Positions 26,161 to 26,647 of a DNA stretch of 64,000 nucleotides are shown piece after piece (within the stretch, counting starts at the first letter, position 1; every line of letters starts with the position of its first letter). The stretch lies in sequence record PV467749.1. One strand, given 5' to 3'. The notes below the pieces were generated by a model. The model saw only the letters and a list, made by a program, of their open reading frames with translations, ran no database searches and had not been told where the DNA came from. This DNA is from a phage. The position numbers were made by a program, and so were the translations under genes.

Positions 26161-26325
26161 TCATCGGTACACGATATGCATCAGTACTTCTTCGTCGAGT
26201 TCAGTACTTAAATATGCTTTGTACATACACTTAACACGTATAACATCCCACATTCTAGAATCTAATGGTAGATAATAAGGATTCCACTTTATTTTTTGGC
26301 GTTTCATCCACTCTTCATGTGTCAT
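26161..26325 (-). CDS. MTHEEW small-protein family, copy 3 (54 aa)
   Basis: Hand-translated: MTHEEWMKRQKIKWNPYYLPLDSRMWDVIRVKCMYKAYLSTELDEEVLMHIVYR; below ORF-track length cutoff. Confidence 0.45.
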   Translation of the reverse strand: MTHEEWMKRQKIKWNPYYLPLDSRMWDVIRVKCMYKAYLSTELDEEVLMHIVYR

Positions 26326-26486
26326 ATTCGTACCAGTAGTTCAATTAAGTACATTTCATATGCTGGATCGTTGATAAGTTTATCATACAGATGTGGCTCT
26401 GAAATGAATTCCCAATGATACTTTAGCCATTTACCGATACCCGAATATCTAAAATTAATATCATTCATCCATTCTTCATGTGTCAT
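26322..26486 (-). CDS. MTHEEW small-protein family, copy 2 (54 aa)
   Basis: MTHEEWMNDINFRYSGIGKWLKYHWEFISEPHLYDKLINDPAYEMYLIELLVRI; ATGA overlap with neighbours. Confidence 0.45.
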   Translation of the reverse strand: MTHEEWMNDINFRYSGIGKWLKYHWEFISEPHLYDKLINDPAYEMYLIELLVRI

Positions 26487-26647
26487 TTTCGTACCATTAT
26501 TTCAATAAAGAACCACGGATACACTTCATGATTCATAAGTTTATCGTATTCTGCTGGGTCTGATATGATTTCCCAATGATATTTTCGCCAACTACCGATA
26601 CCCGAATATCTAAAATTAATGTCATTCATCCATTCTTCATGCGTCAT
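26483..26647 (-). CDS. MTHEEW small-protein family, copy 1 (54 aa)
   Basis: MTHEEWMNDINFRYSGIGSWRKYHWEIISDPAEYDKLMNHEVYPWFFIEIMVRK. Confidence 0.45.
   Translation of the reverse strand: MTHEEWMNDINFRYSGIGSWRKYHWEIISDPAEYDKLMNHEVYPWFFIEIMVRK

Follow-up and report, generated by a model that had tools for sequence, protein, structure and literature searches.

MTHEEW mini-protein genes beside the tRNA cluster of an Asteriusvirus-type jumbo phage: a predicted superfamily of variable copy number

The 64,000-nt stretch of phage record PV467749.1 analysed here (the window) carries on its minus strand, at 26161–26647, three back-to-back small genes whose products all open with MTHEEWM. We find that these are almost certainly genuine protein-coding genes, and that together with a pair at 27981–28333 they represent five window members of a predicted superfamily, which appears confined to jumbo phages of the Escherichia coli PBECO4/121Q type. 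Copy number differs between close relatives and reaches 16–19 in uncultured ones. Most likely, going by sequence and fold models, the five window genes specify stand-alone, soluble, aromatic-rich helical mini-proteins of ~54 aa. The fifth member, the copy-number variation and the arrays of 16–19 members in uncultured relatives are new here.

A first-pass annotation had proposed three 165-nt ORFs chained by ATGA overlaps, and reading of the minus strand with a listing of open reading frames (ORFs) of at least 30 aa across 25900–28400 bears this out. Each ORF encodes 54 aa, and at both junctions the upstream TGA stop lies inside the downstream ATG-A. Copy 1 (c1, subfamily A1; 26483–26647, MTHEEWMNDINFRYSGIGSWRKYHWEI...) is the first gene of the triplet. 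Copy 2 (c2, subfamily A2; 26322–26486) starts on an ATG that overlaps the c1 stop, as does copy 3 (c3, subfamily B; 26161–26325, MTHEEWMKRQKIKWNPYYLPLD...) on the c2 stop. Copy 4 (c4, subfamily C; 27981–28151, minus strand) encodes 56 aa (MTHKEWLDEL..., MTHKEWLDELKFKHNPFGFG...), and its ATG overlaps, again as ATGA, the stop of a 61-aa gene at 28148–28333 on the same strand (MQPKTFDEWFNLHY...DFGTYFSIAVMDKIR).

The identity of c1 and c2, put at about 70% in the first-pass annotation, is 69% for protein and 80% for DNA. c3 and c4 share only 25–28% of their residues with c1 (c3, 25%), and the DNA of c3 is ~32–38% identical to that of c1 and c2 past its first 23 nt, this 5′ segment being conserved. 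The reported divergence of c3 is therefore real, although c3 is still a homologue of c1 over its full length, matching PHROG 10970 throughout (E-value (E) 6.7e-26) and keeping the hydrophobic columns. A profile of the four copies, run against all six frames of the window, returned those four alone (E 2e-32 to 6e-31, next best 0.4), so that the resemblance is not due to chance.

Identity of the surrounding region is 97–98% with several E. coli jumbo phages, BF17, CMSTMSU and vB_Ec-M-J among them, and ~90% with PBECO4 and 121Q, which are classified as Asteriusvirus; by this similarity the window phage is assigned to the same genus (PBECO4/121Q-type E. coli jumbo phages). About 37 genomes carry the same ORFs under the annotation 'hypothetical protein', PBECO4 having a tandem of two and 121Q and BF17 a tandem of three. 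PHROG 10970 (56 positions) is matched full-length by c1 (E 1.6e-26), c2 (1.4e-24), c3 and c4 (1.8e-29), over profile positions 1–55 or 1–56, and 27 of 36 aligned relatives also match it, while six of the 36 aligned members fall in no PHROG family. Given these annotations, a PHROG with no assigned function and the absence of a Pfam match, the MTHEEW genes are sequences already known and uncharacterised. Searches of Pfam and NCBIfam, including their helix-turn-helix (HTH), Myb/SANT and zinc-ribbon models, gave no family recurring among the 36 members at E up to 1, the best single matches being unrelated and far under the cut-offs; none of the 36 matched a PADLOC-DB defence model at E up to 1, a profile search of the PDB gave nothing meaningful, and no literature description of the family was found.

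A search of other phage genomes, which the first-pass annotation had recommended, placed the family by tblastn in 37 phage records, all of them Escherichia or Salmonella phages of the PBECO4/121Q group, at three to five places in each; the records opened are Asteriusvirus wherever a classification is given. Among proteins, a word-indexed search of 5.8 billion sequences yielded 16 clusters, and an exhaustive HMMER search of 1.84 billion representatives yielded 22 hits. One of the latter (P0026, 1052 aa) is spurious: it is a eukaryotic Myb/TRF-like protein whose internal 32-residue repeat gives eight matches to one short segment of the profile. The remaining proteins are ~43–64 aa long and nearly all open with MT[HK]xEW, either directly or a few residues past an annotated upstream start; the divergent members among them were found neither in isolated phages nor, in single-protein searches, in IMG/VR. 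A back-translated MTHEEW pattern gave 67 loci in IMG/VR, with the family in one contig only (348,532 bp, as 121Q) and the other loci being chance matches. The searches thus show a family that appears confined to Asteriusvirus-type jumbo phages.

An iterated profile (five rounds, E < 1e-3) extended the family within the window. All five window genes pass it (E 1e-21 to 9e-17), the profile being trained on the same loci it describes, and it matched nothing among 747 shuffled ORFs, on the opposite strand or in the rest of the window. The gene at 28148–28333, which matches PHROG 31562 (E 5.7e-42, positions 1–59 of 61), joins in the second round and ends at E 9e-17, and its C-terminus (...DFGTYFSIAVMDK) resembles that of members of large arrays in uncultured relatives (contigs L010 and L011, see below) that end in ...DFSTYFSIAVAK. 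PHROG 10970, PHROG 31562 and the array members without a PHROG are accordingly grouped here as one predicted superfamily, defined by stand-alone proteins of 50–65 aa, an N-terminal M-T-x-x-E-W, the hydrophobic and aromatic columns listed below and same-strand tandem runs, all of which the five window genes display. These are the same genes as in PHROGs, which keeps the two families unrelated and gives neither a function; here they are joined by the iterated profile. With the 61-aa gene in the superfamily, c4 becomes the second gene of an ATGA-coupled tandem pair and the window holds five members, a triplet plus a pair. The fourth copy that had been called 'dispersed' is therefore present, but it is not isolated.

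Selection on the proposed frame was assessed with the locus extracted from nine relatives, in which six subfamilies (A1, A2, B, C, D and E) were distinguished. The ratio of nonsynonymous to synonymous polymorphism (pN/pS) is a coarse measure on 54 codons, with few sequences and with values pooled rather than resolved by site; pooled per subfamily it was 0.19 (A1), 0.28 (A2), 0.30 (B), 0.26 (C), 0.43 (D) and 0.47 (E), indicating purifying selection. Thirteen reciprocal-best pairs from two uncultured arrays gave a pooled value of 0.42. Paralogs with only 25–30% identity still agree in length (54–60 aa), in frame and in the arrangement of their hydrophobic columns, and the frame is conserved in the 37 phage records. 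Conservation of the frame in related phages had been set beforehand as the test on which the proposal could fall; the frame is conserved and the proposal stands, as does the view that these are real small accessory genes.

Among 83 distinct members, conservation is seen at M1, T2, (H3), E5 and W6, together with hydrophobic or aromatic residues at 7, 21, 28–29, 35, 38–39, 47–49 and 51–52; the remaining columns carry low information. T2 and E5 are the most conserved polar positions. The motif S/T-x-x-E is a classical helix capping box, and T2-x-x-E5, at the start of helix 1, is such a box. Since the conserved residues amount to the capping box plus the hydrophobic core, essentially all of the conservation is structural, and the freely varying positions outside the core would lie mostly on the surface, an assignment that rests on hydrophobicity and not on coordinates. 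The window members have grand average of hydropathy (GRAVY) scores of −0.25 to −0.69, as for soluble proteins, an aromatic content of 15–21% and isoelectric points from acidic to neutral (4.7–7.9). Structure prediction, also recommended at the outset, was run with AlphaFold2 and returned a compact helical domain, a small bundle for which the PDB gave no match, with a predicted local distance difference test (pLDDT) score of 79 for c1 (18 sequences; helices 3–13, 31–39 and 43–50) and 85.5 for c4 (36 sequences; helices 3–14, 23–30, 32–40 and 46–53). Binding of Cu or Ni by Met-Thr-His, in the manner of the amino-terminal Cu/Ni-binding (ATCUN) motif, was rejected as a family feature because position 3 is K, Y, R, F or V in many members.

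The number of members differs between phages: five in the window and in BF17, six in PBECO4, 121Q, ph0011, JP4, UB, WPEC5 and Turkey3, and at least eight in Turkey5. Tandem copy number thus varies between close relatives, as in a genomic accordion. Far larger sets occur in uncultured relatives, on short Logan contigs (L010–L014) assembled from public runs SRR34023382/83/85, SRR30815946 and SRR15674957. Here the iterated profile finds 16–19 members per contig inside runs of 20–25 consecutive genes of 50–65 aa, which form same-strand, nearly gap-free arrays (L010 81–4378, L011 6001–9417, L012 683–4099, L013 8925–13222 and L014 3063–6861). Adjacent array members are almost always spaced by −4 or by +1 to +3 nt. 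Between L010 and L011 we identified 13 reciprocal-best pairs, 34–84% identical in amino acid sequence, with 6 of 19 members lacking a partner. The arrays occupy the locus syntenic with that of the window, beside tRNA genes. L011 shares synteny with the PBECO4 locus: upstream of the L011 array the genes are ~72% identical in DNA, and after the array come tRNA-Leu, Gly, Ser, Met and Asn. On these grounds the window locus is read as a larger array that has contracted and been interrupted by tRNAs while its position is conserved.

The triplet had been described as a 'triplication'. Three tandem copies do exist, but they are not recent: the A1/A2 pair is present in the divergent Turkey5, which makes the c1/c2 duplication old, and c3 is a much older paralog. 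A2 is missing in PBECO4 and UB and A1 in JP4, indicating independent losses. In every genome A1 and A2 differ at 2–4 positions in the first 57 nt and at 26–30 in the next 105, and the two copies share synonymous variants within a genome (ACA in both copies of BF17, ACG...GAT in both copies of Turkey5). The junctions are themselves alike: a 43-nt minus-strand segment spanning the c1 3′ end and c2 5′ end (26464–26506, ATTGAAATAATGGTACGAAAATGACACATGAAGAATGGATGAA) is ~91% identical, counted by eye, to its counterpart of 43 nt spanning the c2 3′ end and c3 5′ end (26303–26345), and the two are a possible substrate for unequal recombination. The junction likeness, near-identical 5′ ends and shared synonymous variants would together fit gene conversion and unequal crossing-over at conserved ends.

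Gene content also differs in the interval between the two sub-arrays (window 26888–27970) among phages that are otherwise 90–98% identical. Turkey3, WPEC5 and ph0011, for example, carry there an additional 504-nt gene and a subfamily-E member; a subfamily-D member is found in PBECO4, JP4, UB and 121Q, and the window has neither D nor E. Where others have an intact subfamily-E member, 121Q (L003 5168–5506; L054 1238–1257) has three tiny coding sequences (CDS) of 53, 32 and 20 aa. An MTHEEW-coding start persists amid these fragmented CDS, which suggests a member in decay.

The triplet sits beside a tRNA cluster, as the first-pass annotation had stated, with a tRNA-Ser(tga) at 26755–26844 on the same strand directly upstream of c1. 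Between the two lies a tRNA-like element (26672–26750, minus strand) that scores 29.3 bits in the Rfam tRNA model, exactly at threshold, and receives no ARAGORN call; it is almost identical to the annotated tRNA-Leu(taa) of 121Q, and in ph0011 and JP4 a canonical tRNA-Arg occupies this slot. The element ends ~25 nt before the c1 start, and the intervening leader (26648–26671, minus strand) contains the ribosome-binding site of c1, a Shine-Dalgarno (SD)-like AAAGG 7 nt before the ATG. This leader with its AAAGG is kept in 121Q, BF17 and ph0011, even though tRNA-Arg precedes it in the last. Because the slot content differs while leader and ribosome-binding site are unchanged, the slot looks like a site of cassette-like tRNA swapping.

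A scan for near-consensus sigma-70 promoters (11 or more of the 12 positions of TTGACA-N16–18-TATAAT, a consensus match only) gave 35 hits in the window, 12 of them perfect, all on the minus strand, the plus strand giving none. With all of these near-consensus promoters pointing one way, the window looks like one long one-directional early region that would be read by host RNA polymerase. A candidate sigma-70-like promoter at 26855–26884 (minus strand; TTGGAA-18-TATAAT with a TG; 10 of 12) lies upstream of the tRNA-Ser, and a strong one at 26124–26151 (minus strand; TTGACT-16-TATAAT) lies just after c3 and would start the next unit. Since these two flank the genes, the simplest candidate transcript would run from the promoter through the tRNA-Ser and the tRNA-like element to c1, c2 and c3. 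Within the triplet only c1 has an SD of its own; c2, c3 and also c4 have no good SD, and their starts lie within the preceding stop. A stop-start overlap with a weak or absent downstream SD, the signature of a coupled operon, is thus found at both triplet junctions and at the junction of the 61-aa gene with c4. The missing SDs, the ATGA overlaps and the array spacing of −4 or +1 to +3 nt point to coupling by termination-reinitiation. The E. coli pairs trpE-trpD and trpB-trpA are translationally coupled through an ATGA stop-start overlap. The MTHEEW junctions share the identical 4-nt overlap and the lack of a good downstream SD with these pairs; they differ in joining paralogs rather than enzymes of a pathway, and their coupling is predicted. 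Early, polycistronic and coupled expression is, on these signals, fairly probable.

Other mobile features occupy the neighbouring tRNA region. A group I intron (Rfam RF00028 at 24433–24747, 99 bits, E 2e-25) interrupts a tRNA-Met(CAT) at 24386–24690 (minus strand) within its anticodon loop, immediately 3′ of the anticodon. The exons of this tRNA, assigned by eye, are GGGCCATTAGCTCACGGTGGTTAGAGCAAACGACTCAT and AATCGTTAGGTACTGTGTTCGACTCACAGATGGCTCACA, the 3′ end of the intron being G, and ARAGORN makes no call on the split gene. The interrupted tRNA-Met is 99% identical in TH47 and Turkey5, while most relatives have an uninterrupted tRNA-Met; the intron itself is 86–89% identical in the Klebsiella jumbo phages Muenster, KP13-7 and RCIP0023, and the listed records that carry it annotate no feature at the match. 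Between the split tRNA-Met and tRNA-Asn, a 68-aa ORF (24162–24368, minus strand) with a C-terminal HTH-like stretch (...VSIYESYGASKNVFARFLKRHGL) may be the remnant of an intron-linked homing-endonuclease DNA-binding module; it has no Pfam match at E up to 0.1. In L011 an HNH homing endonuclease (NUMOD4 plus HNH_3, 9935–10534) is inserted in the tRNA cluster just downstream of the large array, a further sign of a mobile-element hotspot.

We propose, tentatively, the following account, which we regard as plausible rather than probable. Host RNA polymerase would read the genes early, from sigma-70-type promoters that are densely placed and all face one way, the triplet being read together with the tRNA-Ser and tRNA-like element; c1 would be translated from its own ribosome-binding site, and c2 and c3 by termination-reinitiation at the ATGA overlaps. 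The products would share a scaffold and present a different surface in each paralog, so that each might bind a different host or defence protein in host takeover or counter-defence, while the array would expand, shrink and be partly homogenised as its conserved junctions and 5′ ends undergo unequal recombination and gene conversion. The role in binding or counter-defence, taken by itself, is possible but doubtful. Several observations weigh against the account. Positive (diversifying) selection was not seen, orthologue pN/pS being below 1 in pooled tests that are coarse on 54 codons; an active arms race might predict ongoing positive selection, and its absence counts against one. Searches of sequence libraries and of folds turned up no likeness to a known inhibitor, and the neighbouring genes, having no functional assignment, give no hint from context. 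The promoter calls are consensus matches only, and the two fold models, of moderate confidence, disagree in detail, with three helices and a bridge for c1 and four helices for c4. A literature search, partly off-target, found no Asteriusvirus transcriptome or infected-cell proteome.

Other explanations were weighed against the same data. That the ORFs are no genes at all, and are chance frames over a DNA-level tandem repeat or regulatory element beside the tRNAs, might be argued from their size (all below 62 codons, and without experimental support) and from the conservation of the 5′ 23 nt and the junctions at the DNA level. Yet c3 keeps length, frame and hydrophobic pattern past those 23 nt in DNA that is otherwise scarcely alike, synonymous changes are in excess, neither the opposite strand nor shuffled ORFs give matches, and AlphaFold2 returns a confident fold for c4; this explanation is effectively refuted. 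Fusion of the copies into one multi-domain protein, through programmed −1 frameshifting at the overlaps, is suggested by the c1/c2 junction (CGA-AAA-TGA), where tRNA-Lys could slip on A-AAA into the c2 frame. The c2/c3 junction (CGA-ATA-TGA) has no slippery run, however, the last codon differs among orthologues (K, I, L or T), many array junctions are spaced by +1 to +3 nt instead of overlapping and every member has kept its own ATG, so that fusion is ruled out for want of a conserved slippery run. More credit, though still little, is due to the idea that the genes are weakly constrained filler, duplicated ORFans that recombination-driven amplification maintains with little or no benefit to the phage. 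The locus is a hotspot of insertion and swapping (the changing tRNA slot, the intron, the L011 endonuclease, the variable genes between the sub-arrays), one member is reduced to fragments in 121Q, and copies are lost without obvious harm; against this, every subfamily and the large arrays have a pN/pS far under 1, lengths are uniform and frames intact down to 13–20% identity, and the tight packing of the genes is kept. We consider filler quite unlikely.

Two further explanations grant the proteins a function. The paralogs might be subunits of a single hetero-oligomeric regulatory or structural complex, with coupling setting fixed proportions; this would suit the ATGA junctions with no SD before c2 and c3, the presence of A1, A2 and B together and in the same order in most genomes, and hydrophobic, aromatic-rich sequences (~18–20% F/W/Y) that could form interfaces. 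PBECO4 and UB without A2 and JP4 without A1 are nonetheless all viable isolated phages, and sets of 5 to 19 with many partnerless members fit a fixed assembly poorly, which leaves the complex unlikely. Very unlikely, in our judgement, are small nucleic-acid-binding regulators, such as HTH-like transcription factors or proteins that act on the adjacent tRNAs or on the transcripts of these. The predicted domain is small and helical, its genes hold a conserved site beside the tRNA cluster in distant relatives and are probably co-transcribed with it, and an Arg near the C-terminus is conserved in PHROG 10970 members, but the proteins carry an acidic charge and give no HTH signal.

Our preferred account, that of early-expressed, coupled binders of host or defence targets, has partial parallels elsewhere. 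Small takeover and counter-defence proteins such as T4 Dmd (60 aa), T7 Gp2 (64 aa), T7 Gp0.4 (51 aa) and lambda Kil (47 aa) are products of single-copy genes. By analogy, the MTHEEW proteins resemble the T4 Dmd/T7 Gp2 class in size, in their apparent location in an early region with host-type promoters, in the lack of enzyme motifs and in plausibly binding a single target each; they differ in lying in arrays, and no similarity of sequence or fold was detected. In the African swine fever virus multigene families (MGF) and the poxvirus K3L 'genomic accordion', tandem paralogs expand and contract by recombination and diverge while keeping a scaffold, and they serve host range and immune evasion. 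The likeness here is looser: MTHEEW paralogs are likewise in tandem and differ in number between close relatives, whereas their pN/pS of 0.19–0.47 gives no sign of positive selection, and the proteins, far smaller and not homologous to the viral ones, belong to a virus of bacteria. Within jumbo phages, the MTHEEW genes are comparable, as many paralogs of a very small domain in one lineage, to the zinc ribbons of Bacillus phage G, an expansion of ~35 copies whose function is unknown and for which a role in regulation or conflict was proposed (Iyer et al. 2021, PMC7824862). Unlike the phage G proteins, the MTHEEW proteins are predicted to be helical and have no metal-binding Cys/His pattern, and they belong to another phage group and to a tight, coupled tandem array beside a tRNA cluster. 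That jumbo-phage review (PMC7824862) does not mention the MTHEEW family.

Taken alone, the three genes of the triplet are ordinary, being annotated hypothetical proteins with a known PHROG in a well-sampled phage genus, and most jumbo-phage genes lack a known function, as do 83% of the gene products of phAPEC6 by its published account. What is added here is a predicted superfamily that unites two PHROGs and unclassified ORFs, and copy-number variation among phages that are 90–98% identical. The large arrays are the most notable part: uncultured relatives spend ~4 kb on 16–19 such genes. The compact 54-residue scaffold, predicted to fold stably and free to vary outside its core, offers an easy entry point, since it is simple to synthesise and to screen for toxicity, partners and counter-defence. 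In its most far-reaching and somewhat unlikely form, our proposal is of a 'binder repertoire', a hypervariable scaffold encoded by up to ~20 coupled genes beside the tRNA cluster, in which each member would have a target of its own, either a host defence to be neutralised or a host factor to be hijacked, and unequal recombination would tune array size. Were the genes a diversified inhibitor set, the array would be useful as a supply of small protein inhibitors and for marking how host range evolves in therapeutic coliphages, and the binder repertoire, if true, would be an equivalent in bacterial viruses of the multigene families for host range in poxviruses and African swine fever virus.

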